A stretch of DNA of 64,000 nucleotides from the NCBI GenBank assembly GCA_044228285.1, contig JBGAVD010000002.1:545653-609652 (forward strand), in the 5' to 3' direction. Both the position numbers and the translations under genes were made by a program. The DNA is from Chlorobiota bacterium. GTDB lineage: Bacteria; Bacteroidota; Ignavibacteria; Kapaibacteriales; NICIL-2. The notes below the pieces were generated by a model. It worked only from the letters and a program-made list of their open reading frames with translations. It had not been told where the DNA came from and did not search any database. This document shows, piece by piece, positions 17,838-57,621 of this stretch; within the stretch, counting starts at the first letter, position 1, and each line of letters opens with the position of its first letter.

Positions 17838-20360
17838 TTAGCGATCAACGACCAGTTTTCCGCTCACAAGGTCCTCACCAAGTTGGAGCGTATATATGTA
17901 GGTGCCGTTTGCGACGTGGTTGTTTGCTGAAGCATCCCATCGTGCCAGGTAGTTCCCGCTGCTTACACGTGCATGGACAACCGTAGCCACACATTGTCCT
18001 TGAGAGTCGTAAACCTTCAATGTACACTCTGCACCTTCGCGATTCTGAGGGACGATAAAAGCAAAGAGAGCCGAGCTGCGGACTGGGTTAGGAGACACAA
18101 AGCTTTGAACTGTGCTGGTCACTGAGTTTTCAATGACATCCATGACAAGATTGGCTCCTGGGCTTTGCAGTTCACCAAGTGTATCAGTCATGTAGAGTCG
18201 TGTCAAACTCGGACGCATGGATGTAGAGTGGTACAGCTCTGACCATTCTTGGTCCGATAAGCGCTGGAAATTCTGAGTAACATACTCATAGTAACTATAA
18301 ACGGGTCCAAAGTATGCCGTTGAGCAGTCGTCAATATCTTTGGCTATTACTACTGCTAAGTTTGGTGCACCAGTTGCAACATGTAAGACCTTACCTACAA
18401 GGCTCCCACTTTCGTCGGAAGGTTGCGTGTGAACATCAGCAACACAGAATCCTGTTTCAAAACTCTTCAACACATGTGGATTCATGCCATATTGAAGCTG
18501 AGGGTAGTATCCTCTGTAGTAGACAATATCACAGTCAGATTCTTTCGATATCCAATTGGATATCAACTCTTCATCATCAGTGCTAAACGCAAGGTGCATG
18601 AGTTCCTTGTCTGCAAGCGACGCAAGTCTTTCACATATCTGTGCCATCGTTCTTAATGAGGAGTGCAGGCTGGGACTAAGGTCTTTAACATAACAAGAGT
18701 CTACTATGGGTTCCAGACGCGTGCAGATTGCAGACAAACGCCGATACAGAGACGGCATCGGTTCCACGTAGCCCTTAGGATAGAAGCAGGCTGATATTGT
18801 TGTGTAGGGTTGCTTTGCATACAGTAGATAGTCATGTCGCAATTCCGCCCACGCAGCAAGTTGGGTATTCAGATTCTTTTGCCACCATGCTGCTGTTTGC
18901 ATATGTAATGGAAGTGATGCACGTAGCCCTTCTGTAGGCGGATTCAAATGTCGCAGAACGTCCAATCGTGAAGTGTACACAGAGTTATACCAACCATCTT
19001 GCACATACGAATCGATCATATACCGTATTGCTGCAAGATTCGGAGCGTAAGAATAGCGATTCACATCGTCCGCTAAATATTGCAGTGCAGCATTGTTTCC
19101 CAATGCGAACATTGCATCAAGTGGTTTTGGCATCAAGCGTAACTTAACTTGATCCGCAACGAGCTGTCCAAAGACGTAAGAATCAATAACAAAGCGCTGC
19201 CCTAAGAAAAGAAAAGCAGGCGCTGGTTTGACGGTGTCTTTACCGTTTGATTCTAAGAGTTGACTCAATATGCGTTGTTCGGCACCTGCATCTCGTGCCT
19301 GTTTCTGAAAGAGCAAGAGGAGTGAGTCATTAGACATTGATGAAACACTCAGTTTATTACTCTCGATAATTGATAAAAGGTCTGCTTGTTTCAGATTGTC
19401 TTGCGGTCCAGCAAATGCTTGAATACACTTGTCAACGAGTGAATAGTGAGCTTCATACGCGCCCGATCGAAGCAAAAGTGTGCTCAAGTAAATCGACAAG
19501 GCGCATTGACGTCGTATGTCTGCATCAGAAACTTGGGATGCACTTATTGGTTTCTCGATGTAGATCTCCGTTCGCCCAAGCCACATCATTGCCTTGAAAT
19601 AGGATGGCAATCTGGATGGAGTAGGCTTGTCATAGTGACCACGAAGCTTGAACATACTCCAATCAACCAGCCTCCATGATTGTGAAAAAAGTTGAACAGA
19701 GCTCGGCTGTAATAACTCAATTGCCTGAAGCAAACCATCCATCTGGCTACTATTCTCTGTGTAACATGGACTGATGGTTGCAGTATCGTGCTCATTTAAG
19801 AGCTTCAGTGCCATGCATAGATACAGATCCGCATCTAAACTCGCTTGCAGACTAAGAGAGTCGGTAGGAGGTAGTTGCTTGTCGGACAAAAGGATAGAGT
19901 GCATTGCGCGCAGAGTAGTATCAAGATGATAGGACAGCGAATGCTGCTCGAGATCACTTAAGATGTTGTCAAAGCTTGTGTGCGTCGCATTGAGAATGGC
20001 ATCAGAAGAAATAAAAACAGGCAAATCCTTTCTGTAGATATCGTAAAACCAAGCGTTGAAGTCTGGTTTTTTCAATCGATCACTAACAACAAAACTATGC
20101 TTCTCGAGAAGTGCTTTCTCTCCACTCGTGAACTTATACTTCGTATCACCCATGTCAAAAAACTGGGCTGTGGAGAGATCAGCAGGAGCGCTCTTTAAAA
20201 AGCTGCCTGCGTCGAAACGCTGTTGCAAATCTTTGTAGTCGTAGTTCTTCGTCGTGTCAAGAAAACGCTTGTATGCGCTTACATCGAACTGTGAACGGAC
20301 GGTGACCGTTGATATGCAAAGCGCGCACATCAGAATGAGGGGAACACTTAAAGTCTTCAT
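17838..20360 (-). CDS. Large secreted protein (840 aa) with T9SS C-terminal sorting domain. The N-terminal domain is unassigned.
   Basis: Signal peptide MKTLSVPLILMCALCISTVTVRSQ. C-terminal ~85 aa (...PNPVRSSALFAFIV...YIYTLQLGEDLVSGKLVVDR) are a type-A T9SS CTD. Confidence 0.75.
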   Translation of the reverse strand: MKTLSVPLILMCALCISTVTVRSQFDVSAYKRFLDTTKNYDYKDLQQRFDAGSFLKSAPADLSTAQFFDMGDTKYKFTSGEKALLEKHSFVVSDRLKKPDFNAWFYDIYRKDLPVFISSDAILNATHTSFDNILSDLEQHSLSYHLDTTLRAMHSILLSDKQLPPTDSLSLQASLDADLYLCMALKLLNEHDTATISPCYTENSSQMDGLLQAIELLQPSSVQLFSQSWRLVDWSMFKLRGHYDKPTPSRLPSYFKAMMWLGRTEIYIEKPISASQVSDADIRRQCALSIYLSTLLLRSGAYEAHYSLVDKCIQAFAGPQDNLKQADLLSIIESNKLSVSSMSNDSLLLLFQKQARDAGAEQRILSQLLESNGKDTVKPAPAFLFLGQRFVIDSYVFGQLVADQVKLRLMPKPLDAMFALGNNAALQYLADDVNRYSYAPNLAAIRYMIDSYVQDGWYNSVYTSRLDVLRHLNPPTEGLRASLPLHMQTAAWWQKNLNTQLAAWAELRHDYLLYAKQPYTTISACFYPKGYVEPMPSLYRRLSAICTRLEPIVDSCYVKDLSPSLHSSLRTMAQICERLASLADKELMHLAFSTDDEELISNWISKESDCDIVYYRGYYPQLQYGMNPHVLKSFETGFCVADVHTQPSDESGSLVGKVLHVATGAPNLAVVIAKDIDDCSTAYFGPVYSYYEYVTQNFQRLSDQEWSELYHSTSMRPSLTRLYMTDTLGELQSPGANLVMDVIENSVTSTVQSFVSPNPVRSSALFAFIVPQNREGAECTLKVYDSQGQCVATVVHARVSSGNYLARWDASANNHVANGTYIYTLQLGEDLVSGKLVVDR

Positions 20361-27523: not shown

Positions 27524-29404
27524 TTAGAATATCGTATATAGTATCAATAGTGCGAGAACTGTTCCCACAACGACGGCAGCAAAGCCGAAGAGGCGCAAGC
27601 CAATTTCTACTGGCAGTGGAGTAGGTTTGGTGACCACGTAGTCCTTTGTGTTGCCGGTTTCATTGTAGCGTTTCCATTGGTCCATTCGTTCATGTCGCAT
27701 TTCCTCCTCACTGATTTGACCATTGAAGATGACGAAATCCATAGGGAATTTCTCTACTCGTAGGTGCGTGTTAAAGAAGTGAATCGTAAAGATGAATCCT
27801 ACAGCGAGGAGTGCTTCGTCGGAGTGGATGATGGTTGCTACATTAAACACCCAACCAGGTAAAAAACCTCCAAAGAACTCAGGCATCCATAGTATGAGAC
27901 CACTTGAGCCGATAACGCCGACGCCCCAGAATACAGCCAGAAAGTCAAACTTCTCCCAATATGTCCAACGATCAAACGTTGGCTTTGGCCCTTTGAAAAA
28001 GAACCACTTAAACATTGCGATCATGTCGCGAAGATCGCGACGGTTTGGAAACAGGCTATCAGGTCCAAACAAACGCTGCAACATGGTCTCTTTCGGCGCA
28101 CGCTTCGTGATGAGGAAGCGTATACTCATGCCGAGTGTGACAAAGAAGTATCCGAAGGTGACAACGGCTGCCAGACGGTGGATGAGACCAGCCGAGGCAA
28201 CACCGCCGAGAAGGTCCATGAGTGCATGTCCCCATTGGGTCTCGTTGAACTTCAAGGGTAGACCAGTTATAGCAAGGGTTAAGAAACTTGTGATGACAAA
28301 AATGTGGAGGATGATGTGTATTGGACGGAAACGACGATACACTTTCTGCGCTGCATGCTGTTTTGTTACTTCGGTGGCTGCGCCACCGAAGAGGGCTGCA
28401 TTGGCAAGATGCTTCTTCTCAACAAAGCCTCGATACATCCATAGTAATGAGTGCAACCAGAAGAATAGAAACGTACCAGCCAGTAATCCATTCATGCTAA
28501 TGGTCACCCAAAAGAGCAGAGGATTGGCTTGTCGGTTCCCAGGTTCAGCATGCGGAAGGTATTTGGCAAAGCCGTTACCTGCATCCTTATGACACTGCCG
28601 ACAGGTCGTTGTGAGGTTGTTAGGATGTATCGATGAATGAGGATCATCCTTTGGGAGAATCTTGTGCGACTCATGGCAATCACTACAACCAGCAACTTGT
28701 TCAGGATGACCTAGGCGAACGTTCTTGCCGTGGTAGCTTTCGAAATACGAAATTGGTGCGATTGTGGTGACTTTGTTACGCGCCATTTTATCGGCATCAG
28801 CATGACACTTTAAACACGCTTGAGTATGAAACATGCGGCCTTGCTGGACGTTGTCTATGCGATCGATGGCGTGCAAACCATGGCAATCCACACAGCCCGG
28901 AGCATCCTTACTGCCTTCTTTTATAGCTTTGAAGTGACTCGATTCGAAGAAGGACGATTGCTTGTCATGACATTGAGTGCAGAGTTGGGCAGTGGCAATT
29001 TTGTCGTTCTTGATGGAGCGTAAGCCGTGTATCTCCGAGTGACACTTAGCGCAGGTAATTGGCAGACGTTTTGAGTTGTGTACGCTTTTCTCGTGATCGT
29101 TGACCACAGAAGAGTGGCAGCTCACACACTGTGTTGGCTTGAATGAAGCAACGCACTTCTTGTCTGTACCCTCCGCTGCAAATGGAGCCTTAGTGTGATC
29201 TTCGATATGGCATGCTGCGCATTGCAGTGACTTGTGTACTGAGCTGTTATATAAAGCAGAGTACTTATGATCACCATGGCATTTCTGACAATCTGAGTTT
29301 GACTGCGTATGTGTTTGAGTGTTCTGCGCACGCGTATTGGTACCGCTCATTACAAGTATCACCAGGCAGGCGGCTAGTTTCGAGAGTTTGGATAGTACTG
29401 ACAT
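27524..29404 (-). CDS. Nine-heme c-type cytochrome fused to a membrane dihaem cytochrome b (FdnI/HydC-like) domain. CbcL-like quinol oxidoreductase.
   Basis: Signal peptide MSVLSKLSKLAACLVILVMSG (internal ATG at 29404; the ORF is open to 29491). Nine CxxCH motifs (CQKCH, CAACH, CVSCH, CAKCH, CTQCH, CVDCH, CLKCH, CSDCH, CRQCH). The C-terminal ~330 aa have at least four hydrophobic helices with conserved His, resembling the b-type cytochrome of formate dehydrogenase or hydrogenase. Confidence 0.8.
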   Translation of the reverse strand: MSVLSKLSKLAACLVILVMSGTNTRAQNTQTHTQSNSDCQKCHGDHKYSALYNSSVHKSLQCAACHIEDHTKAPFAAEGTDKKCVASFKPTQCVSCHSSVVNDHEKSVHNSKRLPITCAKCHSEIHGLRSIKNDKIATAQLCTQCHDKQSSFFESSHFKAIKEGSKDAPGCVDCHGLHAIDRIDNVQQGRMFHTQACLKCHADADKMARNKVTTIAPISYFESYHGKNVRLGHPEQVAGCSDCHESHKILPKDDPHSSIHPNNLTTTCRQCHKDAGNGFAKYLPHAEPGNRQANPLLFWVTISMNGLLAGTFLFFWLHSLLWMYRGFVEKKHLANAALFGGAATEVTKQHAAQKVYRRFRPIHIILHIFVITSFLTLAITGLPLKFNETQWGHALMDLLGGVASAGLIHRLAAVVTFGYFFVTLGMSIRFLITKRAPKETMLQRLFGPDSLFPNRRDLRDMIAMFKWFFFKGPKPTFDRWTYWEKFDFLAVFWGVGVIGSSGLILWMPEFFGGFLPGWVFNVATIIHSDEALLAVGFIFTIHFFNTHLRVEKFPMDFVIFNGQISEEEMRHERMDQWKRYNETGNTKDYVVTKPTPLPVEIGLRLFGFAAVVVGTVLALLILYTIF

Positions 29405-29429
29405 TGTGCAAATCCAGAATGAATAATGT

Positions 29430-30626
29430 TTAGCCGCAGAGTCCGCCCGCGCGTTTCTTGGAAGCAATCTTAATTTTCTGTACGTATGCATCTTTCGGGA
29501 ACTGCTTTAAGATCTCCGATGGAGGTGCTGCAATGTTCACTTTGTGTCCAGCTACGGTTTTGCCGGCAAAGAGTGAATTCCAGTTCGTTAGGCCTTTCTC
29601 AAGGATGTAGAGGTTTGCAACACCTTGAACCTTTAGATACTCCCAAGCTTTAACTGCTACAGTTTCATTGTCTGAAACAAGGACAACTACGCCTTGCGCT
29701 GGAAGTTGTGCGTACGGTGATACTTTCTTCGCATCGAGAAGATCCTCGAGAGTTACGTTGAGTGCACCGTTCAGATGAAACTTCTCAAACTCATCCGCAC
29801 CACGCAGGTCTAGACACACAAGCTTGATACTTGCTTCATTGTAGGTCTTCACGTATTCGAGCGGATGTATAAACACAGCCTTTGAGCGGAGTAGTGGCGA
29901 GTAGGTGTTCTGCATGATTTCCCACTTGCGCACTGGGTCGGGTTGGCCTATGAGCCAGACGCATGCAGCTGCTAGAACGAGTGCGCCGGAACCCAGCTTA
30001 TAGGATCGTTTCGAGATTGTCCACGACATCGGTGTGTCAGTGCCACGATTTCGGAAATACTCTTCTGTTTTCTCCGCAGCGTAGAACATGACGAGTGCCA
30101 TGATCGTGACGCCGAACACGGTAGCACCAACTGACCATCCAAGCCATTCATTGAGGATGTAGCGATCGGTGAACGAGGAGTACCAAAAGTCTTCGAAGCT
30201 TGACAGAGACTCTCCGAAGATTCCTGCACCAATGACTGTTCCGATGAGAAAGGCGAGGCCGTCGATCTTGAAGCTTGCAGTTGCGACGACTGAAGTTCCA
30301 GGACAGTAGCCTCCGATGATGAAGCCAACTCCCATGATCAAGCCACCAATGATTCCTGGCCAGAGAAATGTCTGATTAACCGATAGTTGTGAGAAGTCTA
30401 AGTAGCCCAATCCCGCTGCGCCAAACGTAAGTAAACAAGCCACGATGATGCCCGTGAACATAGTTTTCAGAACCGTCATATCTTTTAGATAGAACTGCGC
30501 TGCGAGACGTCGGGAGTCTCCAAAGCCTGCAATCTCCAGGGCGAAGCCGAAGGCTGAGCCTATTAAAAAGAAGACAAAGTATCCGCCTGCTTTACCCAGA
30601 ATGCTAATGATGTCGATAGGTAACAT
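29430..30626 (-). CDS. YeeE/YedE (TsuA-type sulfur/thiosulfate transporter) half fused to a C-terminal rhodanese-like domain
   Basis: GYCPGT motif in a TM helix, a YeeE/YedE signature. After one further TM helix there is a ~100-aa rhodanese-fold-like region (...VVVLVSDNETVAVKAWEYLKVQGVANLYILEKGLTNW). The start is ATG 30626 (GGAG 11 nt upstream) or TTG 30641. Confidence 0.75.
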   Translation of the reverse strand: MLPIDIISILGKAGGYFVFFLIGSAFGFALEIAGFGDSRRLAAQFYLKDMTVLKTMFTGIIVACLLTFGAAGLGYLDFSQLSVNQTFLWPGIIGGLIMGVGFIIGGYCPGTSVVATASFKIDGLAFLIGTVIGAGIFGESLSSFEDFWYSSFTDRYILNEWLGWSVGATVFGVTIMALVMFYAAEKTEEYFRNRGTDTPMSWTISKRSYKLGSGALVLAAACVWLIGQPDPVRKWEIMQNTYSPLLRSKAVFIHPLEYVKTYNEASIKLVCLDLRGADEFEKFHLNGALNVTLEDLLDAKKVSPYAQLPAQGVVVLVSDNETVAVKAWEYLKVQGVANLYILEKGLTNWNSLFAGKTVAGHKVNIAAPPSEILKQFPKDAYVQKIKIASKKRAGGLCG

Positions 30627-30651
30627 TGTCGTCTGCTCCAAGTGTGATTAA

Positions 30652-31173
30652 TTAGTCAGCCCACAAACGGCGAACGAAGTACGCGACGGCATATCCGCCG
30701 GCAAAGACGCTGAACATGAATGCCCAGCTACCCAGAGATAGAACGGCACCTCCGGACAGTGCCTGACCTGATGTGCATCCTCTCGCTAAACGAGCACCAT
30801 AGCCCATAATGACACCTCCAACTAACGCTGCTATGATTCGTTGTGTATTGGTGATGCGTGCACCTTTAAAAATCTCTACCTTAAGTCGGCCATTGAAAAA
30901 GGCCGATGCCATACCTCCAGCAAAGGTTCCAAGCAACAAGAGCACGCTAGCATGATCGAGAGGATTGCGGTCGCCTGCTCCCATTGCCGCGAATGTTCCG
31001 ATGGCATCCACATGTGAAGACCAAACGATTTTCGTGAGCGCAACCTGAATACGACTAATAGCGCCAGAAGCGCCCAGACCACTATGGGTCAGCGCGAAGG
31101 CGCTGAAAAGCACCACTCCAAGAATGCTTCCAGCGAAGTACGGGTTCGTAACGGGTTTAGGAATCTTTTTCAT
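30652..31173 (-). CDS. YeeE/YedE family protein (other half of a split TsuA-like transporter)
   Basis: ATG start. 173 aa with 4–5 hydrophobic helices and a GCTSGQA motif, the second YeeE/YedE Cys motif. 10–25 bp from the neighbouring genes. Confidence 0.75.
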   Translation of the reverse strand: MKKIPKPVTNPYFAGSILGVVLFSAFALTHSGLGASGAISRIQVALTKIVWSSHVDAIGTFAAMGAGDRNPLDHASVLLLLGTFAGGMASAFFNGRLKVEIFKGARITNTQRIIAALVGGVIMGYGARLARGCTSGQALSGGAVLSLGSWAFMFSVFAGGYAVAYFVRRLWAD

Positions 31174-31193
31174 AATATTCTTAGCTCCTAGAA

Positions 31194-32621
31194 TTATTTC
31201 GAAGTCACTTGGACTGGATCACGACTATACCCGAGTTCTTTCCACTTGAAGCGACCATTGTCTGAATGACACTGTTGACAACTGAGTGCCTTGCTCTGCG
31301 TGGTAACCATGTGGGTAATAGGCCAGTACATTTTGGTTGGTGTAAAACCAAAATTGCCACTATATGTTAAGCCAGCGAGTGCTGAACCCTTCTTTAAGGC
31401 AGCAGCCCAGTCGAACTTAGTCCAGTAACCACCTTCTCCACTAGTGAGTGGTGGTACGAGTATGCCATTCACAAGATCAAATGGTTGTTCAGCGAAGTGA
31501 ACCTTGAAAGGCCAGATCTTAGCTTTAGCATTTGAGCGACTACCAATGGGTTTATTGATGTGGTGTACGGAATCGGCATCGAGCTTGTCGCCAAGTATGT
31601 AACGCTCCATCTTACCTGTGTACCAAGCATAAGTTGGTACTACGTCTTCCTCGTACTGAAACTCACCTTTAATCTTCAAGTACTCGTGCGGATTGTCTTT
31701 TCGCGTGGAGTCTCCCGCCTTCGACCAATCCCAAGCCATCTTGGTAGGGAGCTTGCGCGCGAACTCGGGGATATGACAGGTTTGACAAGCGATGCGCAAA
31801 GAATGCTGATTGAGGCGATGGTCTGCGTGTGGTTTCTCTGTGTGACAGTTCTCGCAACCAAATCGCGCAACCTTTGTTTCGTCGGAGTAGGTAGCATTCA
31901 CTTTTCCCGGGACAACGTGGCGCTCGGTCTTGTGACAATCCACACATTGGAAGTTGAGCTTACCCATATGATAATCCAGCTCCTGATTCGCATTCAACAA
32001 GGATTCATCCAAATCTCCGTGCTTAACACCCATACCACCTCCGCCACTGAAGTGACAGGTTCCACAGTTTTCGCGAGTTGGCCGATGAACGCTACCAGCC
32101 ACAAGTTTTAAATCCACATTCTTGTTTGGCATTCCACTACGACCTTTTGAATAGCTACCGGATCCGTCATGGCAAATCAAACAGTCGACGTTCTCCTTCT
32201 TGCTGAAATCAAAGTCTGCGTTGTCGAATCCATAGCCAGCATGGCAGGCGGAGCATGAGATCCAGTTACCAATCACACTTATGCAGAAGTTATTGACTTG
32301 GTTTTTCTTGCCTAATGGAATGGTCTTGCCATTGCGTACGGCATCACCACTAATCCAGGTCCAGTGTGCAGTTTTCATGACTTCGTCTGCTGCCTTCGGG
32401 TGACACTTCAGACAGCTCATGGTCACCTTCTGCGGAGAGTCAATGGAGTCACGATAGTAGGCACTATGATCTAAATGCGGAATCTCGCGTCCTTGCAGTG
32501 GATTCAATGCCACTGGCTTGATTGGTGTCTCAGTTCTCGCACCTCTATTGCAAGCGCTGCTCGTGAACAAGAGAACTACGGTACAACCAAACAATAGTAC
32601 GCGTGCAAGAACCGACATCAT
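31194..32621 (-). CDS. Octaheme c-type cytochrome (octaheme tetrathionate reductase/OTR-family-like)
   Basis: Eight CxxCH motifs (CLKCH, CSACH, CLICH, CGTCH, CVDCH, CENCH, CQTCH, CQQCH) in ~475 aa. Signal or lipoprotein-like peptide MMSVLARVLLFGCTVVLLFTSSAC. The start is 32621/32618, with the ORF open to 32675. Confidence 0.8.
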   Translation of the reverse strand: MMSVLARVLLFGCTVVLLFTSSACNRGARTETPIKPVALNPLQGREIPHLDHSAYYRDSIDSPQKVTMSCLKCHPKAADEVMKTAHWTWISGDAVRNGKTIPLGKKNQVNNFCISVIGNWISCSACHAGYGFDNADFDFSKKENVDCLICHDGSGSYSKGRSGMPNKNVDLKLVAGSVHRPTRENCGTCHFSGGGGMGVKHGDLDESLLNANQELDYHMGKLNFQCVDCHKTERHVVPGKVNATYSDETKVARFGCENCHTEKPHADHRLNQHSLRIACQTCHIPEFARKLPTKMAWDWSKAGDSTRKDNPHEYLKIKGEFQYEEDVVPTYAWYTGKMERYILGDKLDADSVHHINKPIGSRSNAKAKIWPFKVHFAEQPFDLVNGILVPPLTSGEGGYWTKFDWAAALKKGSALAGLTYSGNFGFTPTKMYWPITHMVTTQSKALSCQQCHSDNGRFKWKELGYSRDPVQVTSK

Positions 32622-33381
32622 TCGCTCTCGGTATGTTGGTCGGAACTCTTGTTGATTTATCATGCGTGTTCTCATAAGTCACCTTTGTTGGAAGGGGAGT
32701 GTCTTTGATTCATGCTGGTCTTCGAAAGAGGCATGTTATCGCCATGGAGATGGGTCATGACATTCTCACGAATGCCAGTTTTCAGATTCATAGCAGGGCG
32801 TTGCCCGCTTGTCTGCGATCCCGATGGGTAAATGCTCGTTAGACTTCGCAGTGTTGTTGAAAATACCTGTGCACTAAAAGCGGGGTGCGAATTCACTCGG
32901 CAAGGATCTGTTGCGGCGAATAATAGCTCGTGTTGATATCTTCTGAGCCTTCTTTTGCTGTTTAGGGAGAGTATGGGAAACGGAACCTTCATTTCATCTT
33001 TCCGGGCTCGAGTTTGTAAGCAGAACTATCGACCAGAAAACTAATTAAGATAATTTTGTCCTAAAATATGCAATAGGTCAGAAAAGAACGAAGAAAAGTT
33101 TTCAATAGCAAGTCTGCAGCATCGAACACCCGGGTAGCCGAGACGCCATTCTGCCGAACTTAGATTGTGAAGTCGAGCATACATTGCTGCTCTGTGTAAC
33201 GAAACATGGGGTCGCTGGCTTCTAAGTGCTTATAAAGATAGACACATAGTTGCCTTGAAAAGCTTGGTGCTGAACGTGAACAGGTCTCTTACTCATTTTA
33301 CGAGTGTGTAACTGAGATTGAATGGACTATGCGAATTCAACCTCTAGTTTTCATTATCAGATTGCACATCACAAAGTTCTT

Positions 33382-33432
33382 GCGTAACCATTCAGTTACG
33401 TGTTATATTGCTACGCGTAACCGATCGGTTAC
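33382..33432. promoter_or_regulatory. Two adjacent inverted repeats sharing GTAAC half-sites (CGTAAC-N6-GTTACG and GTAACC-GATC-GGTTAC). Candidate ArsR-family operator.
   Basis: Read directly. A perfect 16-bp palindrome GTAACCGATCGGTTAC sits at 33417–33432, 33 bp before the arsR-like ATG. A second IR at 33382–33399 has the same half-sites. They lie in the divergent region between the regulator and the cytochrome operon. Confidence 0.5.
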
Positions 33433-33464
33433 TGGAAAGTTCGAGATTAGAAGCTAGGGCATCA

Positions 33465-33830
33465 ATGCGACGTGACGTCTTTCAGGCAATAGCAGATCCA
33501 AACCGTAGGGCTATTCTTGCGGAGTTGGTGAAGCGGCCACTCAATGTTCAGGCAGTAGCGAAGCAGTTCTCGATAAGTCGTCCAGCTGTATCAAAACACA
33601 TGAAGATATTGGCTGAATGTGGCCTGGTGGTCTATACTCAGAAGGGACGTGAGCGATACTGCGAGGTACAGATACAGAAACTCAATGAGGTGTCTGAATG
33701 GGTGCAACAATACCGCGAATGGTGGTCTCAAAGTATGGACTCTTTGGATGCCTACTTACAGGAAGTGCAGAAGAAAGATGCAGTGGGCCCGAGCTCGAAC
33801 AGAGAAGCTGATGCCGTGAATGAGAGCTAG
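33465..33830 (+). CDS. ArsR/SmtB-family transcriptional regulator
   Basis: HTH region VFQAIADPNRRAILAELVKRPLNVQAVAKQFSISRPAVSKHMKILAECGLV is typical of ArsR-family wHTH. ATG at 33465. A TTG at 33408 would overlap the palindrome. Confidence 0.8.
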   Translation: MRRDVFQAIADPNRRAILAELVKRPLNVQAVAKQFSISRPAVSKHMKILAECGLVVYTQKGRERYCEVQIQKLNEVSEWVQQYREWWSQSMDSLDAYLQEVQKKDAVGPSSNREADAVNES

Positions 33831-33994
33831 GAAACAACATGCCTTTGGCAAACGCAGATATGCCATCATACTCGTAGCACGGCGAGAATGAGCATCTGCC
33901 AGTCCCTCGCAAAGAGCAGCTTTCGTGTTTGCTGAGCCTCGAGTAACTAATGAGAATCGCTAATCAAGACCTCTTAACATAAACACAATAAAGT

Positions 33995-34534
33995 ATGAGC
34001 AATAGCCAAACCACCGTAGAAATTCTGGCAGGTGATCTGATCATGAAGCGCCGTATTGCAGCGCGCCGCGAACTAGTCTATGCTGCGTGGACCCAAGCGC
34101 AACAGCTGGCGCGCTGGTTTGGTCCACACCACGTGGTTATATCTGAATGTTCTTTTGATGGATATGTAGGCGGACAAATACGTATTGTGATGCTGGCGTC
34201 TGACGGCAGTCTTTACCCAATGAATGGAACGATCGTTGAGCTCAGCGAGAATGAACGACTGGTGATGAACTTTGATCTTAGAGATCATCCACCAGAGTGG
34301 CACAGCATGATGGCTGAACAGTATCGCGCAAACGGTGGAAACGGAGATATGACGCCGATCGTTCGCATCGAAGTGGATTTTATCGAAAGCTCCAAGCAAG
34401 GGGAGCACACGGATCTCATCATCCGACAGTGCTTCAACTCTGATCCTGAGAGTCAAACCTATCTCAAAATGGGCTCTGTTGATGGGTGGTCGCAAAGCTT
34501 TGAAAAACTCCAAGAGCTCTGTCAACAAAGCTAA
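33995..34534 (+). CDS. SRPBCC-superfamily protein (AHSA1/activator-of-Hsp90-ATPase-like domain)
   Basis: RELVYAAWTQAQQLARWFGP is typical of AHSA1-like SRPBCC proteins, which are commonly encoded next to ArsR regulators. Confidence 0.75.
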   Translation: MSNSQTTVEILAGDLIMKRRIAARRELVYAAWTQAQQLARWFGPHHVVISECSFDGYVGGQIRIVMLASDGSLYPMNGTIVELSENERLVMNFDLRDHPPEWHSMMAEQYRANGGNGDMTPIVRIEVDFIESSKQGEHTDLIIRQCFNSDPESQTYLKMGSVDGWSQSFEKLQELCQQS

Positions 34535-34687
34535 TGGACCATAGCAAACAGAAATGATGACTGTTCATATCGAGTTCGTTTCTTCTTGCGAGTACTTGTG
34601 CTCACTAATTCTGAAGCGACAAACCCAACAGTCAACGATACAATGATATTCTCAAGCAATAATGATTCACTATTAAAAATACACTTC

Positions 34688-35050
34688 ATGCTTCTCAATG
34701 ATCCTGAACTCGACAGACGTTCACTTATTAATCGCCGACAGCTCTCTGCTCCTAGAGAGTTAGTGTTTGACGCATTTACGAAATTGGAACACGTTGCTCA
34801 TTGGTATGGTCCTCGTGGCTTCACAACTACCACCGAGCATATGGATGTGCGCGTTGGAGGTGAATGGCTCTTTACCATGCACGGACCTGATGGAGTCGAC
34901 TACCCAAATCGCATTCGATACTCTAAAGTCGTACGCCCAGAGCTTCTTGAATACATCCACGACGACGCGCAAGAGCCTCCGAAACAGACTTTTCATGTTA
35001 TTGTGACCTTCGAAGTTGAAGACAGATCAAGTGGCAACCTATGCTGTTGA
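34688..35050 (+). CDS. SRPBCC-superfamily protein (AHSA1-like), possibly frameshifted at the 3' end
   Basis: RELVFDAFTKLEHVAHWYGPRGF. The ORF ends ...FEVEDRSSGNLCC. The +1 frame continues ...ATYAVEGGKQTMDKLVEYLTRIQGQKV to ~35117. The N-terminal extent is uncertain (the ORF is open to 34586). Confidence 0.65.
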   Translation: MLLNDPELDRRSLINRRQLSAPRELVFDAFTKLEHVAHWYGPRGFTTTTEHMDVRVGGEWLFTMHGPDGVDYPNRIRYSKVVRPELLEYIHDDAQEPPKQTFHVIVTFEVEDRSSGNLCC

Positions 35051-35178
35051 AGGTGGGAAGCAAACGATGGATAAATTGGTGGAATACTTGACAAGAATTC
35101 AAGGCCAGAAAGTGTAAAGAATGGTACTTCTGCTCTCTTCTCTTTTTGAGACGTGCATCTTGATGTGTTATGCGAGCT

Positions 35179-38160: not shown

Positions 38161-39645
38161 TTAGTGCAGAACCTGCACTCGTCGACAGAACTTTGTGACA
38201 CCTTGATACTTCAGAACAACGAGATAGCTCCCAGAAGCAAGCTGCGAGCAATCTACTTGTGCTGTTAGAGTCTGACTTTCGAATTCTAGATGTAAGGCAG
38301 TAGTTCCTTCAAGACTGAGAAGCTCGACCGAATTGAATGGGTTTTCAGAGAGCAGCAGCAGCTGAGAAGAACTAGGATTTGGATAGATCTGCAGACCTGC
38401 AGACTCTTCGAGAGCTACTGGCGCAGCAGGACTGTACTCAACAGCGCCTATAGATCGCGGTGAAGCATAGACTTTACCATAGAAGTCTTGCAGTTCTTCT
38501 TGCAAATCCGTGCTACCAGCTTTAATCGCTGGAGAGCCTTCTTTCAATCGGAACGAGATCGTATCTTCAAGCAGTGGGTTGCGGTTCTGCAGACCATTCA
38601 GTTCAGTGGCTGGTAGATTCGGACCTGACCATCGCGAGTCATCTGGATTGTACCAGATATTGTTCGCAAAGCGAAAAGACGAGGGATCAGTATTTGGTCC
38701 TACGTTTACAGCAACGGTACCTGTAGTGCCGTATACGACAATGTTGTTCCGAAAGGAATTGTTAGCGCAGGGGACAAAGCCAGCTGATGTGTTCTCTTGA
38801 AGAATGCGAAAAGCCCAACGAGAAGGTCTGTGAATGGTGTTGTTCTCAACTCTACACTCGATGGCACCTACAAAAGCGATTGGGGTTACTGCACCAACAA
38901 AGATGTTCGCAAAGACCCGAATGTTCTTTGCCTCATACTTTGCATCAAGTGGTCTGAAGAAGGCTAAACCGGTTGAGCCTCCTACGTTGATAGCGCGTTC
39001 ACCACAGTTATAAAAACGATTTGCGTGAATGAGAATGTCGGAGGATGCACCCTTTGCTTGCACCGCATTGGATCCAGCACGTTCGAACAGATTGTTGTGG
39101 AAGAGTCCGCGGTGACATCCTACCATGTCAACCAGAGATCCACCATTTGCTCCGTTCTGAAAAACGCATTCCCTCACTTCAAAGTCGTCGACTCCTGAGA
39201 GTTTGAGTTCGTCATTGTTTCCAGTAGCCGACATACTACGCCACGTACAACGAACAATATGGATGTGGTGTGTTGGGGTTTCAAGAGTTCCTGCATCATC
39301 AATGTTTACACCATTTCCCGTCTGTTGCTCAAAACTCAAACCCTCAATACGGACGTAGGATGCCTCGCTCATTTGAAAAGCCTGTGATCCACCTCGAAAC
39401 ACAGCGGAACCTTGCTGCTCCGCCATAATTGTAATCCACTGACTCTGGCTACCGTGTAGATTATTGATTGCATTATCTCCGCTATGTACACCTGAGTGCA
39501 CCAGTATCGTATCGCCAGCACGTGCCTGTTGAGCTGCTAGTTGCAGTCGTGGATAGGTCTGCCCGGTCCCTACATGGAGCACTGCGGCTTGGGTCGTTAT
39601 ACTGGCAAAAAGCATGGCTATGCTGAGCAGGGAACACTTTATCAT
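38161..39645 (-). CDS. Right-handed parallel beta-helix (pectate-lyase-fold) protein with T9SS C-terminal sorting domain
   Basis: Signal peptide MIKCSLLSIAMLFASITTQA. Repeated beta-helix rungs (NN..xG, IHAN, VENN, FRNN, FANN). C-terminal LQIYPNPSSSQLLLL...GSYLVVLKYQGVTKFCRRVQV is a T9SS CTD. The ORF is open to 39714. Confidence 0.7.
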   Translation of the reverse strand: MIKCSLLSIAMLFASITTQAAVLHVGTGQTYPRLQLAAQQARAGDTILVHSGVHSGDNAINNLHGSQSQWITIMAEQQGSAVFRGGSQAFQMSEASYVRIEGLSFEQQTGNGVNIDDAGTLETPTHHIHIVRCTWRSMSATGNNDELKLSGVDDFEVRECVFQNGANGGSLVDMVGCHRGLFHNNLFERAGSNAVQAKGASSDILIHANRFYNCGERAINVGGSTGLAFFRPLDAKYEAKNIRVFANIFVGAVTPIAFVGAIECRVENNTIHRPSRWAFRILQENTSAGFVPCANNSFRNNIVVYGTTGTVAVNVGPNTDPSSFRFANNIWYNPDDSRWSGPNLPATELNGLQNRNPLLEDTISFRLKEGSPAIKAGSTDLQEELQDFYGKVYASPRSIGAVEYSPAAPVALEESAGLQIYPNPSSSQLLLLSENPFNSVELLSLEGTTALHLEFESQTLTAQVDCSQLASGSYLVVLKYQGVTKFCRRVQVLH

Positions 39646-39963
39646 GGCTTTTCCAAAGTTGAGGGTTTTGCAAATCTCGTTGCTGTTCTGAACACGATCC
39701 GGCATCAAATCCAAGGAGCTTCAGAACCGGCCCCTTAAAATTAGGTGAGCGTTGTTTAACTGTCATAAAAAATATCATCTTAGAGCAAAAGAGCGTCCAG
39801 TAGTGGCAGCTGTGGGCAATGATGCGCTTTGGCACCAGTCGAGCAGCTCGCGGAGCGAGACTGCGAGCATGACAAAAAGCCTCCTATCACTCAAGTAGGC
39901 TCAGAATAAAGCGATAATCCAAGGGTATAGGTTGTCGGTGTATAAATGTCAGAAATGGTAGCT

Positions 39964-52390: not shown

Positions 52391-54949
52391 TCAGCGTTGT
52401 ATCATGAAAGCCTCTGATATTACTTTGTCATGGCTTTGAATGATGCAGTAGTATGTTCCATTGCAGAGCTGATCGATTGCCAAGCGACTCTGCAACTGCT
52501 GCTGAGCGTGACTGAGCTGCTGCTCTGAGCGCTGAACTTCACGACCGAACACGTCGACGATTGAAATTCGACAATAGCCGCTAAGCCCAACATTTGCAAG
52601 GATCTGAATGTGCTCACGGGCTGGATTTGGACTAATGTGTATTTGCTTCTGGTCGGCGTACTCTGCTGCCTCAATACCAACGCTACTTTCTGGGATCCAA
52701 GCTGCGATGAACGAACTCACCGATGTACCAGCTTTGCTAAAATCCCCACTGAAGAACACGGTGTCATTGAGAACGCAGATTCCTGTTACAACATTGTTCA
52801 GCCCACTGCCTAAGGCGTACCAACGTTTCTGTTTGAGGTTCCACACAGCTGCGTTGTTGGCAACTACGTCGCCAACTCCACTGAAACGTCCGCCAATATA
52901 GAGTTCATCGCCCTGCAAAGCCATTGCATACACTTCACCTCCAGTGAGACCGCCAGCAAGGTCAAACCACTCGTGTCCATCCCAATAAGCTATACCATTT
53001 ACCGGCTTGTTGCCACGTCGGCTCATGTAGCCTGCCGCAAATACTTCATCACCGCGAGTCACGAGAGCGTTTATCCCGTTGAATCCATCGCCAGCTGCGA
53101 AGGGGAAGCAGTCCCATTGAGCGTTGCTCCATTGCGACAAACCATTGCACGCATTTGATCCAATCGAATAATAAGAGCCTCCAACGAGGATGGTTTGGTT
53201 TGAACCCTCCGCTAAGGCTGTCACAGGATTGTAGAAGTTTGAAGAGTCAATTCCGTTGTTGAGTGCAGACCAACTGCTGCCATCCCAGAGTGCAATCGAG
53301 TTGCAGACAGTATTGCCCATACTAATGAAAGCCCCGCCAACATATAGCTGAGTCCCGCGCTTCAGGAAAGCACTGACATTAGCTCGATCCCAGGCTGAAG
53401 ATCCTGTTGCACTTCCGCCAAGGGCGTGAACGGTGGAACCGTCGAAGGCAATGAGACTATTTGCTTGCACACTACCGCAACCAGTGAAATCACCGCCGAT
53501 AAGGAATTCGTCGTTGTATTTAGCGACACTATAGATAGCTGGCGACTTCCAAGGGGGAGTTGTACGCTGATTGGTTCTGCCAAGAAATGCTCCGGGAATG
53601 CCACTGCCAATTTGCTGCCACTGCTGGTCGCGCCAGCGTGCAATGTTCGCCACCGGAATTTCACCGCTGTGTGTGAAGAGTCCAGCTGCAATGAGCTCTC
53701 CGTCGAGTACACTACACACACATGAGTTATCGAAACCCATTGAGGAGTTTGCGTGCAGACGAAACCAATCGTTAGATATGTTTGAAAAGCCGGCGATGTT
53801 GAGCGAGAAGTGTCCGCCAGCTTGTCGGAACCTGCCAGCAACAATGGTTGTATCCGTGCTCAACGCGATGCAACGCATCCACGGACTACGCTCATGATCA
53901 GAAACACCGCTAGCTAAACCATACCAACGGGATGTCGAGCGATCCCAGCGACCAATGCCAAAAACGATGGTGTTGTTGATCTGGGTCAACGAGTCGCCAA
54001 TCACATAGAGATCCTTCGACGATAGCGCGCAAGCTCGCAGCGCAGCATTCTTATTCTCAAGTTGGTCAATAGGTGCGGACCAATCCGTTCCGTTGTATAG
54101 CAACAGGTTAGGTGCGTACACTTGCTTGTTGTTGACAATCACTGAATCAAAAGCGCCGACGAGTGCGAGAAGGGAATCGGATGTAGCAAGATCGTAGATT
54201 AGGTTGGCTTTTCTGTGACCTAGGCGAAAACCTAGGAGGGACTCTGCATTTTGCCAACGCTGCCCATCCCAACATACGAAACTAGTAGCCGTAAGATCAC
54301 CCGCTACATCTTTGAAAGTGCCTGCTACAAATAGCTTGTCTTGATAGACACAAAGTGCAGAGATCTCGCCATTGAGACCATTCGCGATTCCGTTGCCGAG
54401 AGATTTCCATTCCTGCCCATCCCATCGTGCTATGTTTCGGCATGCGCGATTGCCCGCAACTGAGAAATCGCCGCTTGCATAGAGCTCGCCACGATATACA
54501 CAAAGCAGCGTAACATCACCGTTTGTACCGCCACCCATTGCATGCCACTTTTGATCGTTTTTGTCAAAGCGTGCGATGTGCTGACACGAATTCGCTCCTG
54601 ATCGAATGAACATTCCTGCGGCAACCACGTCACCGTTGAACATTGCCAAAGCACGAACGGACGAGTCTAAACCTCGACCCATTTCGCGCCATTGTTGGCT
54701 AGGAACATCATAGGCTACTACGTTATCTGTTGGCACCACAAATCGCCCACCTATGTAGTATGTACTCCCATCAATAAGAACAGCCGCAATCGGCAGTGAG
54801 TCTCGCGAGATTGAGGTATCAGCAGCTTGAATACCGGGCAAACCAAAACGTGTACTCCAGCGCCTATCGTCATAGATTCCAGCCTTGCTGCTATCACTAC
54901 ACATGATAGATACGAACGTGATGCAAAGGGAGAGGAAGGTCAGTCTCAT
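52391..54949 (-). CDS. Kelch-type beta-propeller repeat protein with T9SS C-terminal sorting domain (paralog B)
   Basis: Signal peptide MRLTFLSLCITFVSIMCSDSSKA (internal start). The ORF is open to an ATG at 55012, which overlaps the upstream stop as ATGA. At least 12 repeats follow LYVGGxF...GxxxANNIAxWDGxxWxxLGxG. C-terminal ...IHISPNPAREHIQI...GTYYCIIQSHDKVISEAFMIQR is CTD-like. Confidence 0.7.
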   Translation of the reverse strand: MRLTFLSLCITFVSIMCSDSSKAGIYDDRRWSTRFGLPGIQAADTSISRDSLPIAAVLIDGSTYYIGGRFVVPTDNVVAYDVPSQQWREMGRGLDSSVRALAMFNGDVVAAGMFIRSGANSCQHIARFDKNDQKWHAMGGGTNGDVTLLCVYRGELYASGDFSVAGNRACRNIARWDGQEWKSLGNGIANGLNGEISALCVYQDKLFVAGTFKDVAGDLTATSFVCWDGQRWQNAESLLGFRLGHRKANLIYDLATSDSLLALVGAFDSVIVNNKQVYAPNLLLYNGTDWSAPIDQLENKNAALRACALSSKDLYVIGDSLTQINNTIVFGIGRWDRSTSRWYGLASGVSDHERSPWMRCIALSTDTTIVAGRFRQAGGHFSLNIAGFSNISNDWFRLHANSSMGFDNSCVCSVLDGELIAAGLFTHSGEIPVANIARWRDQQWQQIGSGIPGAFLGRTNQRTTPPWKSPAIYSVAKYNDEFLIGGDFTGCGSVQANSLIAFDGSTVHALGGSATGSSAWDRANVSAFLKRGTQLYVGGAFISMGNTVCNSIALWDGSSWSALNNGIDSSNFYNPVTALAEGSNQTILVGGSYYSIGSNACNGLSQWSNAQWDCFPFAAGDGFNGINALVTRGDEVFAAGYMSRRGNKPVNGIAYWDGHEWFDLAGGLTGGEVYAMALQGDELYIGGRFSGVGDVVANNAAVWNLKQKRWYALGSGLNNVVTGICVLNDTVFFSGDFSKAGTSVSSFIAAWIPESSVGIEAAEYADQKQIHISPNPAREHIQILANVGLSGYCRISIVDVFGREVQRSEQQLSHAQQQLQSRLAIDQLCNGTYYCIIQSHDKVISEAFMIQR

Positions 54950-55008
54950 GGTTCTACGATCTCTGCAAGCTTGTGCAGGAGAGTGCTCATATTTCAATTC
55001 TGTGTTTC

Positions 55009-57621
55009 TCATTGCTTTACGAATCGACAGTGTATAATCTGTTGATCGCGGGTTCTAATCACGCAACTGTAGCATCCGGGAGGGTAGCTTTGCGTGTCAA
55101 TTCGTAGGTCAGCCTCTTGCAAAGGACTCTGGACGTTGTCGCGTGAATACAGAAGCTCTCCGAAACTGCTGAACACTTTGAGCTCGTCAATATGAGAAGT
55201 GCCTGCGGCATAGCGTAGGTGTACGCGCGCGCTGCATGGGTTTGGGGAGGCAAGAAGAGCTGTGTCTTCATAGACATTCTCGCTGACAGGTGAGGCTAGT
55301 TGATCTGACCACACGGCAATATTTGTACAAACAATATCACCAGCTCGTGTAAATACACCTGAACAAAAGACACTGTCATGAAAGACGAAAACTTGTTTCA
55401 CTTCACCGTTGATCCCGTCACCGAGATTCGTCCAACGCTTGGTCTTTGCATTCCACGCTGCAATGTTACTCGCCGCTACATCACCGATTGCGGAGAACGA
55501 TCCGGCTACGATGAGTCGATCATTGACCCAGGCCATTGAATTGATATAACCATCTCCAACTATCCCGCCGTCCAAATCCGTCCATTGACTTCCATCCCAT
55601 CGTGCGACACTATTGACCACTTTCGCGCCACGAGTATGGAAGCTGCCTGCAATGTAAACATCACTCTCATGGACCACTACACATGAAACGCTGCCGATAC
55701 TGTCTCGAGTGTCAACGCCGATTCCTTTCCAGCTCACGCCGTCCCATTGCGCAAGACCAGAGCACCGTATGGTGTCGGACACGTGCTTAAACGTGCCTGC
55801 TGCGAATACAGTGTTGTTCGGACCTTCTGCGATGTCATAGACAACTGGTTCATACTTGGAAGAATATGGCTTCATTCCACCAGCTAACGACAACCACTCG
55901 CCGTTAGACCACTTGCAGATACTGTTTACAGCTTTTGTTCCGGCGTTGATGAACGCTCCTCCAACATACAGGCTGTTGCCAATCACTTTCATGCACTTGA
56001 CCTGAGAATTGTAATTCGTTCCCACAGCTTGTGTGACTCCTCCATTGAAACTGGTACTAATCTGTCTGTCATACTGGAGAATGTTCTCAACTTTTGTAGA
56101 GTCGACGACTTCAAAGTTGCCTCCGATCAGCATCTTTGATTGAAATATAACCCCACAATTCAAGTAGCTTATAAGATAGATTTTTGGTCCAAGTAATTTG
56201 CCTTTGATGTTTGAGTAGAAACCCGGTCCACAAGCCAACCATCGTTCCTCCTTAGCCCCCGCCCACTTTGCCACACCGTTGGCCGCTACATCCCCTGCAC
56301 TCAAAAAAGTACCTGCAAGGAAAAGGGTATCAGCATCACTGAAGAAGAAACTTGAGGTGGCGCTCAGCAGGCGGTCTGAAGGTGTGCCGAAACTGGTGGA
56401 TTTGTTTAGATCGCGGAATCTTCTCGACTTTATGTCGTAGAGACTAAGGTTAGCGATTGGCTGACTTCCAACTGTAGTATAGCGTCCACTAATGAGGATG
56501 GTACTGTCGTCAGCGACAATACAACCATAGCCCGGACCTAAGCCATTGTTTGCAAAAAGACTATCAACGAGTATCCACTGTCTTGCAGCCAGGTCATAAT
56601 ACTCTAATTGGAAAGAGGTTGTCTGAAGGTTAGAAGTCCGCCCAATACGAGTGAAGCCTCGCGGCCACGTTCCGTTGCGAGAATTAATAAGTCGTGATCC
56701 AGGATAACTCTCGTCAACACCTTGCCAACGCGAGCCATTAAACACCAGCGAGCGCGGACGAGATATCTCCGACGAGTCATCTCGAACAATTTTAAAAGAA
56801 CCTTCTAGAATGAGCAGGTTAGAGACTACGCTTAGTCCAGACACCGACACATCCCAGGCGTCGGAAGTGCAAATCACCAATTTGTTCGGCAGAGATGACC
56901 AGTGTGTTCCGTCCCAGAATGCAGCACGGATCAAGGTTGTATCGAGACCTACTGCATTAAAGTTACCACCCACCACAAGTTTGTTGTCGTACACACAAAG
57001 ACACTTTACTTGAGCTCCAAGCCCACTCACTCCATTGTCTGCACCTTTACCAACGGCTCTCCACACAGAGCCATTCCATCGACATATGTTGCGAACTGCA
57101 ACCGTGTCAGCAGATGTCAATGTGCCCCCAACATAGAGCTCATCTTTATACCAGCACAAACAACTCACGACACCTTTTAACCCAGTCTTCAGAGCGTACC
57201 ACTTTCGTTCGCGTATGTTCCATCGGGCAATATTCTGGGCTTCAATAGAGCCTGCACGCGTAAAGTATCCGCCAACATACAGGTCTTCATCATGAAAGAG
57301 TAACGCAGTAACGTATCCACTAACTCCGCCATCAAGGGTATCCCAAGTTTGAGTGAATCTATTGTAGACTGAAACTGATCTTCCAGCGCCAGAGAAACTC
57401 CCTCCAATCGCTATTAGTTCACCATTCAATGCTGCAGTCGTGACGGGAACATCCGAGCTCGAGCCGATTATACCCTTAACTGTCGAGATTGGACTCAGAT
57501 TCGTCATACCCAACTCAGCACACCAACCCTTGTTGGAATCAGCCCTCAAGTTAGAGCTGAATATTGCGCATACGCAGAGCAAGCTGGAGCAGAGAAGAAA
57601 CTGACAGAATTTCTGGTTCAT
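55009..57621 (-). CDS. Kelch-type beta-propeller repeat protein with T9SS C-terminal sorting domain (paralog A)
   Basis: Signal peptide MNQKFCQFLLCSSLLCVCAIFSS. Repeats AQNIARWNIRERKWYALKTG, VRNICRWNGSVWRAVGKG, VNSICKWSNGEWLSLAGG, VNSVARWDGSQWTDLDGG and others. C-terminal ...LLASPNPCSARVHLRY...CVIRTRDQQIIHCRFVKQ is CTD-like. Confidence 0.75.
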   Translation of the reverse strand: MNQKFCQFLLCSSLLCVCAIFSSNLRADSNKGWCAELGMTNLSPISTVKGIIGSSSDVPVTTAALNGELIAIGGSFSGAGRSVSVYNRFTQTWDTLDGGVSGYVTALLFHDEDLYVGGYFTRAGSIEAQNIARWNIRERKWYALKTGLKGVVSCLCWYKDELYVGGTLTSADTVAVRNICRWNGSVWRAVGKGADNGVSGLGAQVKCLCVYDNKLVVGGNFNAVGLDTTLIRAAFWDGTHWSSLPNKLVICTSDAWDVSVSGLSVVSNLLILEGSFKIVRDDSSEISRPRSLVFNGSRWQGVDESYPGSRLINSRNGTWPRGFTRIGRTSNLQTTSFQLEYYDLAARQWILVDSLFANNGLGPGYGCIVADDSTILISGRYTTVGSQPIANLSLYDIKSRRFRDLNKSTSFGTPSDRLLSATSSFFFSDADTLFLAGTFLSAGDVAANGVAKWAGAKEERWLACGPGFYSNIKGKLLGPKIYLISYLNCGVIFQSKMLIGGNFEVVDSTKVENILQYDRQISTSFNGGVTQAVGTNYNSQVKCMKVIGNSLYVGGAFINAGTKAVNSICKWSNGEWLSLAGGMKPYSSKYEPVVYDIAEGPNNTVFAAGTFKHVSDTIRCSGLAQWDGVSWKGIGVDTRDSIGSVSCVVVHESDVYIAGSFHTRGAKVVNSVARWDGSQWTDLDGGIVGDGYINSMAWVNDRLIVAGSFSAIGDVAASNIAAWNAKTKRWTNLGDGINGEVKQVFVFHDSVFCSGVFTRAGDIVCTNIAVWSDQLASPVSENVYEDTALLASPNPCSARVHLRYAAGTSHIDELKVFSSFGELLYSRDNVQSPLQEADLRIDTQSYPPGCYSCVIRTRDQQIIHCRFVKQ

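Follow-up and report, generated by a model that had tools for sequence, protein, structure and literature searches.

Paired inverted repeats ahead of an arsR-like gene as probable autoregulatory operators of an ArsR–AHSA1/SRPBCC module

Two inverted repeats with GTAAC half-sites lie between an arsR-like gene and a divergently oriented cytochrome/YeeE operon in a stretch of 64,000 nucleotides from a Chlorobiota bacterium (contig JBGAVD010000002.1, positions 545,653 to 609,652), which at its full length is called the window here. Their position raises the question of which protein, if any, recognizes the repeats and which of the two transcription units they serve. An earlier note on this DNA had described two GTAAC inverted repeats ahead of the ATG of the arsR-like gene, and both were read in the sequence as described; it had taken them for sites of the adjacent ArsR and had tied them to the sulfur operon as well. 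Our comparative analysis indicates that the two repeats are very probably the cognate, autoregulatory operators of the ArsR protein encoded 32 nucleotides (nt) downstream (33465-33830). The finding is real and functional-looking, yet ordinary: a self-regulating module of this kind is already known and widespread.

The distal operator dyad, inverted repeat 1 (IR1), GTAACCATTCAGTTAC, occupies positions 33384-33399 and has the core GTAAC-N6-GTTAC; its extended form is CGTAAC-cattca-GTTACG (33383-33400). The proximal operator dyad, IR2, GTAACCGATCGGTTAC, is a perfect palindrome at 33417-33432. Both were read from the sequence, neither being assigned to a strand. They begin with the same GCGTAACC, with a start-to-start distance of 33 bp, and can be written as two copies of GTAACC-N4-GGTTAC. 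Between the extended form of IR1 and the palindrome lie 16 bp rather than the 15 bp given before. The arsR ATG at 33465 lies 32 nt past IR2. The repeats do stand in an intergenic region shared with the divergent operon; its length, previously put at 790 bp, is 789 bp (32676-33464). An independent Logan assembly of the window's locus (L001) had the identical dyad arrangement.

The exact pattern GTAAC-N6-GTTAC occurred twice in the 64-kb window, as IR1 and IR2 only, against 0.08 expected, and two or more such dyads were found in none of 100 dinucleotide shuffles of the window. With one mismatch allowed, the count was unremarkable (3 versus 1.19 expected). The perfect 16-bp palindrome had been thought improbable by chance; this did not hold up, as the window contained two of them and a first-order Markov simulation gave a mean of 1.0. 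The weight of the observation rests on the presence of one dyad in duplicate, at a distance of 33 bp, together with its comparative conservation, and not on a single palindrome. The other perfect 16-bp palindrome of the window, ATATCCAATTGGATAT, is at 18548-18563.

We compared 81 homologous arsR loci besides the window, 80 genome loci among them, from Bacteroidota, Chloroflexota, Ignavibacteria (Melioribacter) and Balneola; totals of 82 include L001, the window's own locus. A dyad with at most one mismatch was present within 150 bp upstream of arsR at 46 of the 81 loci, compared with 17 of 2912 background windows from those loci, and pairs of dyads were found at 53 of 81 loci versus 9 of 2912 background windows. 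Loci devoid of GTAAC dyads had the same layout with variant half-sites such as GCAAG-N6-CTTGC. When the motif was generalised to a G.AA. palindrome, at least one dyad was found at 81 of 82 loci and at least two at 65 (L001 included). Without L001, 80 of 81 loci had a dyad upstream of arsR, 2-70 bp from the start. Pairs were spaced by 26 bp at 41 loci (range, 24-29). The end of the proximal dyad was 2-21 bp ahead of the start codon at most loci, and a promoter-distal dyad equivalent to IR1 was likewise found at most orthologous loci. Bacteroidota loci mostly had two dyads, and the Chloroflexota, Melioribacter and Mycobacterium loci a single one.

To score single sites, we used a position weight matrix (PWM) obtained from 77 orthologous sites, with the window left out of training. 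The PWM consensus, GTAACCGATCGGTTAC, was exactly IR2, which therefore had the maximum score of 26.9 bits. IR1, with 23.5 bits, equalled the training median. Elsewhere in the 64 kb no site exceeded 10.6 bits, and only IR1 and IR2 came into the training range. At the activated-sludge locus L002, where the arsR homologue is 82% identical, CGTAACCAATCGGTTACG and GTAACCGATTGGTTAT precede the start codon, 26 bp apart; arsR is followed there by three AHSA1 genes, and the cytochrome operon is absent. An AHSA1 gene was directly downstream of arsR at 51 of the 55 other loci having a co-directional downstream open reading frame (ORF). The upstream neighbours of arsR were mutually unrelated, no Pfam family being common to more than 4 of 77.

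The half-site bases changed with the recognition helix of the neighbouring protein, and this covariation identifies the adjacent ArsR as the likely binder. The recognition helix of the window ArsR is SRPAVSKH. Helices of the type SRPAxS(K/R)H went with GTAAC in 126 of 158 half-sites, the remainder being mostly GAAAC; SRPAxSQH went with GTAAG (39 of 40 half-sites), (S/T)RQAxSLH with GCAAG (48 of 52), SRPAVSNH with GTAAT (4 of 4), and SR(A/T)AxYKH with G(A/C)AAC. The mixed helix SRQAISKH was accompanied by GCAAC/GCAAT. Half-site base 2 thus followed residue 40 and base 5 followed residue 44, each independently, and the relation between residue 44 and base 5 was consistent at the locus level in 81 of 81 cases. 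The covariation agrees with recent structural work on the superfamily. In the crystal structure of SqrR with DNA, base-specific contacts are made from α4 positions i and i+5, and permutations of α4 have been proposed to set operator specificity in the ArsR superfamily (bioRxiv 10.64898/2026.05.15.721447). Judged by their spacing of five residues and by the S-x-H motif, R39 and K44 of the window protein would correspond to i and i+5. The assignment of the dyads to the adjacent ArsR, as the earlier note had it, is thus backed by conservation across phyla and by the covariation of half-site and helix, and appears to be correct.

A footprinted relative of this arrangement exists. Rv2034 of M. tuberculosis is an ArsR-family autorepressor whose DNase I footprint on its own promoter, from -30 to +3, has CCGTAAGT-N4-ACTTACGG at its centre (Gao, Yang and He 2012, PMC3338718). 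It is encoded in an operon with Rv2035 (polyketide_cyc2/AHSA1) and Rv2036, and has also been reported as an activator of phoP and dosR (PMC3338718). In a mycobacterial contig (L083), the very dyad that was footprinted lay 3 bp ahead of a GTG start; the gene encodes the helix SRPAVSQH and is followed by AHSA1. The helix SRPAVSQH of L083/Rv2034 together with a GTAAG-class half-site fits the covariation rule. The Rv2034 cluster was recovered from the protein database with a query taken to be Rv2034, which was 98-99% identical to database entries (98% for P0122). The window ArsR was 31% identical to P0122, of the Rv2034 cluster, over 86 residues (E 3e-13), and the two belong to the same broad subfamily.

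The window protein and Rv2034 are both ArsR winged helix-turn-helix proteins, and SRPAVSxH is the recognition helix of each. In both, the operator is an inverted repeat spanning 16 bp, in which half-sites with the core (C)GTAA(G/C) flank a 4-bp centre; it lies over the gene's own promoter (putative in the window) just ahead of the start codon, and an AHSA1 gene comes next. The two differ in that the window has two dyads and Rv2034 one, and in that base 5 is C with Lys in the window but G with Gln in Rv2034. Furthermore, the single Cys of Rv2034 is at window position 56, and the positions of C52 and C66 are occupied by A and Y.

The dyads of the window are interleaved with a possible promoter. 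A putative -35-like hexamer, TTGCGT (33380-33385, + strand), abuts and overlaps the left arm of IR1, and a putative extended -10 element, TGtTATATT (33401-33409, + strand), lies between IR1 and IR2. TTGCGT-18-TATATT was the sole match to TTGnnn-N16-18-TAnnnT on both strands of the 789-bp spacer. Both elements have counterparts elsewhere. The Bacteroidota-type consensus of the 41 loci with 26-bp spacing was AAAAAAAATTTGC-[dyad 1]-nTATATATTT-[dyad 2], the element ahead of dyad 1 being also written AAAAATTTGC. A conserved TTTG(C) immediately 5' of dyad 1 in the Bacteroidota loci corresponds to the -35-like hexamer of the window, and a TATATTT(G) block conserved between the dyads of the 41 loci corresponds to the -10 element. 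Bacteroidota promoters have TTTG at -33 and TAnnTTTG at -7, elements that this consensus matches. In the Bacteroidota loci, dyad 1 would then fill the promoter spacer, and dyad 2 would overlap the -7 box by one base and run on over the start site.

From this layout we propose that one repressor dimer would bind each 16-bp dyad, consisting of the half-site GTAAC(C) and a 4-bp A/T-rich centre, by means of the recognition helix SRPAVSKH. IR1 would cover the -35/spacer region of the arsR promoter, and IR2 the start-site region just past the TATATT box. Occupancy of the dyads would block RNA polymerase and so lead to self-repression of arsR, and the AHSA1/SRPBCC gene or genes downstream would probably be co-repressed. 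The signal for release would not involve a metal site of the classical type; Cys52/Cys66 may be its target, or else release may depend on the SRPBCC partner or on a hydrophobic ligand.

Several observations weigh against assigning the repeats to autoregulation by this ArsR. The geometry is off the norm, as the 33-bp spacing of the window is unique among the 65 paired loci. Relative to L002, the excess is accounted for by 7 extra bp, GCTACGC (33410-33416), which follow the -10-like box and precede IR2. The 33-bp spacing would set both dimers on roughly the same face of the DNA and not on opposite faces; since spacing elsewhere varies from 24 to 29 bp, strict helical phasing between dimers is probably unnecessary. 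The promoter hexamers of the window are weak, with the -35 matching at 3 of 6 positions, and a standard sigma-70 scan called no promoter at the dyads. Promoter rules are not established for a Kapabacteria-like organism, which the source appears to be: the best named matches of GcvP, encoded in the window, were proteins of Candidatus Kapabacteria with 73-74% identity. The elements of the window remain putative. The loci counted for covariation do not represent independent events in the phylogeny: on a noisy neighbour-joining tree, with the helix columns excluded, we estimated about 10 changes per character. The identity between the window ArsR and Rv2034 is, as given above, just 31%. Finally, the arsR stop codon is separated by 164 bp from AHSA1/SRPBCC gene 1 (33995-34534, + strand; Pfam AHSA1, E 8.5e-20), the likely regulated cargo, whereas the two genes abut or overlap at most related loci. 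Together with a promoter-like match within the gap, this would make control of AHSA1 less certain than self-control. The match, sigma-70-like TTGGCA-16-CATACT, is at 33845-33872, and AHSA1 gene 1 may have its own promoter there.

The arsR-like gene (33465-33830, + strand) encodes an ArsR/SmtB winged helix-turn-helix protein of 121 residues, matched by Pfam HTH_20 (1.8e-11) and HTH_5 (8.1e-10) and by NCBIfam HTH_metalloreg (75.8 bits; cut-off, 55). It belongs to a very large and tightly conserved subfamily, as more than 7,900 database proteins matched it at E ≤1e-10. The N-terminus MRRDVFQAIADP, R39, H45 and C52 are invariant in the subfamily and C66 nearly so; within the clade examined here, C52 was present at 82 of 82 loci and C66 at 79 of 82. 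Direct reading of the sequence showed a single His (H45) and Cys only at 52, at the end of the recognition helix, and at 66, in the wing strand. There is no CXC in α3, nor a His/Asp/Glu cluster in the C-terminal helix. The classical metal sites are thus lacking. Cys52 and Cys66, invariant in the clade yet absent from Rv2034, are a candidate thiol switch.

We compared the protein with other known classes of the superfamily. It shares the fold of SmtB, CzrA, ArsR and CmtR, which are dimeric repressors that bind inverted repeats, sometimes paired, over their own promoters. In contrast to these, it has neither the α3 CXC nor the C-terminal-helix site, and the cargo is SRPBCC and not a transporter or metallothionein. 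The model for the Cd/Pb sensor CmtR gave 43.7 bits (cut-off, 150) and that for the SdpR-type autorepressor (NCBIfam repress_SdpR) 62.3 bits (cut-off, 100); both were rejected. With BigR, SqrR, HlyU and SoxR it has in common the ArsR superfamily and the use of helix α4 for base contacts, but its Cys residues are elsewhere and its genes show no linkage to sulfur genes that is conserved among loci. The sensing Cys pair of BigR and SqrR lies in the N-terminal (α2) and C-terminal (α5) helices. A Cys pair of this type was rejected for the window ArsR, in which the residues are at 52 and 66 instead, and so was a BigR-type sulfur sensor (NCBIfam sulf_sens_BigR), for which the score was 23.2 bits (cut-off, 155). 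The analogy with SoxR and BigR drawn in the earlier note is supported neither by this score nor by the positions of the Cys residues. A search of PDB sequences with the window ArsR gave as its best match 3F6O, an ArsR from Rhodococcus determined by structural genomics, with neither a DNA complex nor a published function, and a structure of Rv2034 was not found in that search.

Could the repeats also serve the operon on the other side of the spacer? The cytochrome/YeeE operon (27524-32675, - strand), recognized by profile matches, encodes an octahaem cytochrome of the tetrathionate-reductase family (TIGR04315, 535 bits), a YeeE/YedE transporter split in two, one half of which carries a rhodanese fusion, and a protein in which a multihaem cytochrome is joined to a cytochrome-b-like membrane domain. 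In a shared control region, the ArsR would, like SoxR, BigR and SqrR, also govern this divergent octahaem cytochrome/YeeE/rhodanese operon. The two units are divergent neighbours, the two invariant Cys residues could in principle sense reactive sulfur, and adjacency of ArsR and YeeE is common in genomes, with 64 cases in Table 2 of the survey by Makarova, Wolf and Koonin (PMC2701414). Moreover, a different ArsR gene stands upstream of the cytochrome at 23 of 80 cytochrome loci, so operons of this type are often ArsR-controlled. We nevertheless regard shared control as very improbable, for the reasons that follow.

The dyads are at least 709 bp from the cytochrome start codon. The earlier note had proposed that dyads be sought near the operon promoter; there were none on the operon side, the best other PWM score in the 789-bp spacer being -8.4 bits, and, as described above, no other site came into the training range anywhere in the window. 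That note had also named absence of the dyad, from the operon promoter and from orthologous loci, as speaking against its proposal: the dyad was indeed absent from the operon side, but it was present at the orthologous arsR loci. Relatives of the cytochrome or of YeeE were found within 3 kb of arsR at none of the 81 other arsR loci. For the reverse comparison we used 80 metagenomic loci with cytochrome orthologues of 41-75% identity, 45 of which also carry YeeE. The window's arsR subfamily occurred at none of these 80 loci, and one-mismatch GTAAC dyads were present at the chance rate (8 in 537 kb). The closest cytochrome orthologues (≥60% identity) had no ArsR gene within up to 4 kb. The low score of the BigR model, given above, also argues against a sulfur-sensing role.

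The operon side of the spacer itself gave little. Comparison of the 789-bp spacer with the 80 cytochrome loci by blastn revealed no conserved block, and a scan of 32500-33600 against Rfam with E up to 1 returned only a sub-threshold XIST match. Over the approximately 700 bp of 32676-33380, there was no Rfam match, shared block or minus-strand promoter-like match; the lack of the last near the dyads is a further point against shared control. All three tests of the link to the divergent sulfur operon, on the spacer, the arsR loci and the cytochrome loci, were thus negative, and that part of the earlier proposal found no support. An ORF of 106 residues at 32672-32992 (- strand) had no called gene in the Logan assembly.

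The different ArsR gene mentioned above lies directly upstream of the cytochrome and is co-directional with it at the 23 loci, which contain more distant orthologues (L107-L145); examples are L122:3496-3855, L134:3550-3927 and L128:2711-3034. These proteins have 107-136 residues, the motif LHAxxCSxxxDPxR and a single N-terminal Cys, and are generic by NCBIfam. They are candidates for a dedicated regulator of this operon type. When they were compared with the window by tblastn, the only match was the arsR at 33465, at the family level; neither the window nor the loci of the closest orthologues have the cytochrome-linked gene.

Still less probable is that the repeats act as RNA, either as an intrinsic terminator formed by IR1 and a T-rich stretch or as a structured leader or attenuator. 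A scan did flag IR1 as terminator-like, with an 8-pair stem followed by TTATATTGCT, and the 70-nt region folds at -22.8 kcal/mol (z-score, -3.7). Good folding, however, is expected of any pair of like palindromes. There is no + strand gene upstream to terminate, and the 789-bp spacer has no Rfam match. At most loci dyad 1 is upstream of the -7/-10 box and hence would be left untranscribed. The sequence of the arms is itself conserved and its changes track the helix of the protein, which a hairpin would not predict, and the motif is protected by Rv2034 as double-stranded DNA (PMC3338718). Equally hard to credit is binding by some other transcription factor, or a pair of functionless chance palindromes: although chance alone should give a perfect 16-bp palindrome about once in 64 kb, it should not give two identical-core dyads (0.08 expected), 80 of 81 orthologous loci, from several phyla, have dyads, their covariation with the helix of the neighbouring regulator is perfect at the locus level, and the match to the Rv2034 footprint favours the adjacent ArsR.

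With the repeats read as operators of the adjacent ArsR, the window appears to contain a known module, the ArsR-COG3832 (Aha1/SRPBCC) pair, which adjoins the cytochrome/YeeE operon by coincidence. The pair was described as stable, chromosomal and often multi-copy, with an ArsR devoid of metal motifs (Makarova, Wolf and Koonin 2009, PMC2701414). Toxin-antitoxin-like or resistance roles were speculated upon, and an operator was not defined (PMC2701414). Our searches of the literature on ArsR with SRPBCC or AHSA1 turned up nothing on operators. Rv2034 is the one characterised member of the module. The gene pair is found in the window and at the 51 of 55 related loci counted above, as in the module generally. 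Unlike the usual pair, the window has two SRPBCC copies, one of them broken. This second AHSA1/SRPBCC gene spans 34700-35102 on the + strand (listed ORF, 34586-35050) and was matched by Pfam AHSA1 only in part, over positions 2-87 of a profile of 125. In alignment with the L002 orthologue, 34700-35014 corresponded to residues 5-109 and 35025-35102, in another frame, to residues 130-155, about 20 residues being missing. The gene has been broken by a frameshift or deletion and is probably a pseudogene.

What follows from these results is modest. The two palindromes gain a predicted function, and a tempting link between an ArsR and a sulfur-respiration operon is removed. The Rv2034-type operator emerges as a cross-phylum feature of a very common ArsR-SRPBCC module, with a Bacteroidota layout in which two dyads bracket the -7 box of the promoter. 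The relation between helix and bases could be of use in annotating ArsR regulators, of which thousands are uncharacterised, but this would be routine comparative genomics. A bolder claim would be that the FCB/Chloroflexota branch of ArsR-SRPBCC regulators, which has thousands of members and a double operator wrapped around the promoter, is a distinct sensor class with a Cys-pair thiol switch and a usable two-position helix-base code. We consider this unlikely, if less so than the rival readings of the repeats discussed above. If it were true, the Cys52/Cys66 switch would respond to an oxidant, electrophile or persulfide; in the window, such a sensor would stand beside a tetrathionate/thiosulfate operon making reactive sulfur, giving a possible physiological coupling that needs no shared operator. 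The code, which links helix residues 40 and 44 to half-site bases 2 and 5, respectively, could then be used to predict or re-engineer ArsR operators.

Two minor observations concern the surroundings. The ArsR-AHSA1 pair had recurrent neighbours (L003-L082) belonging to the families Glyoxalase, 3-dmu-9_3-mt/PhnB-like, DUF1801, RibD_C, DinB_2 and DUF1572, which are small families of the stress or detoxification type. In the window, large secreted proteins encoded at 2299-4410, 38161-39714 and 52391-55012 have Por_Secre_tail (type IX secretion) or similar C-termini, which fits an origin in the Kapabacteria/Bacteroidota group.

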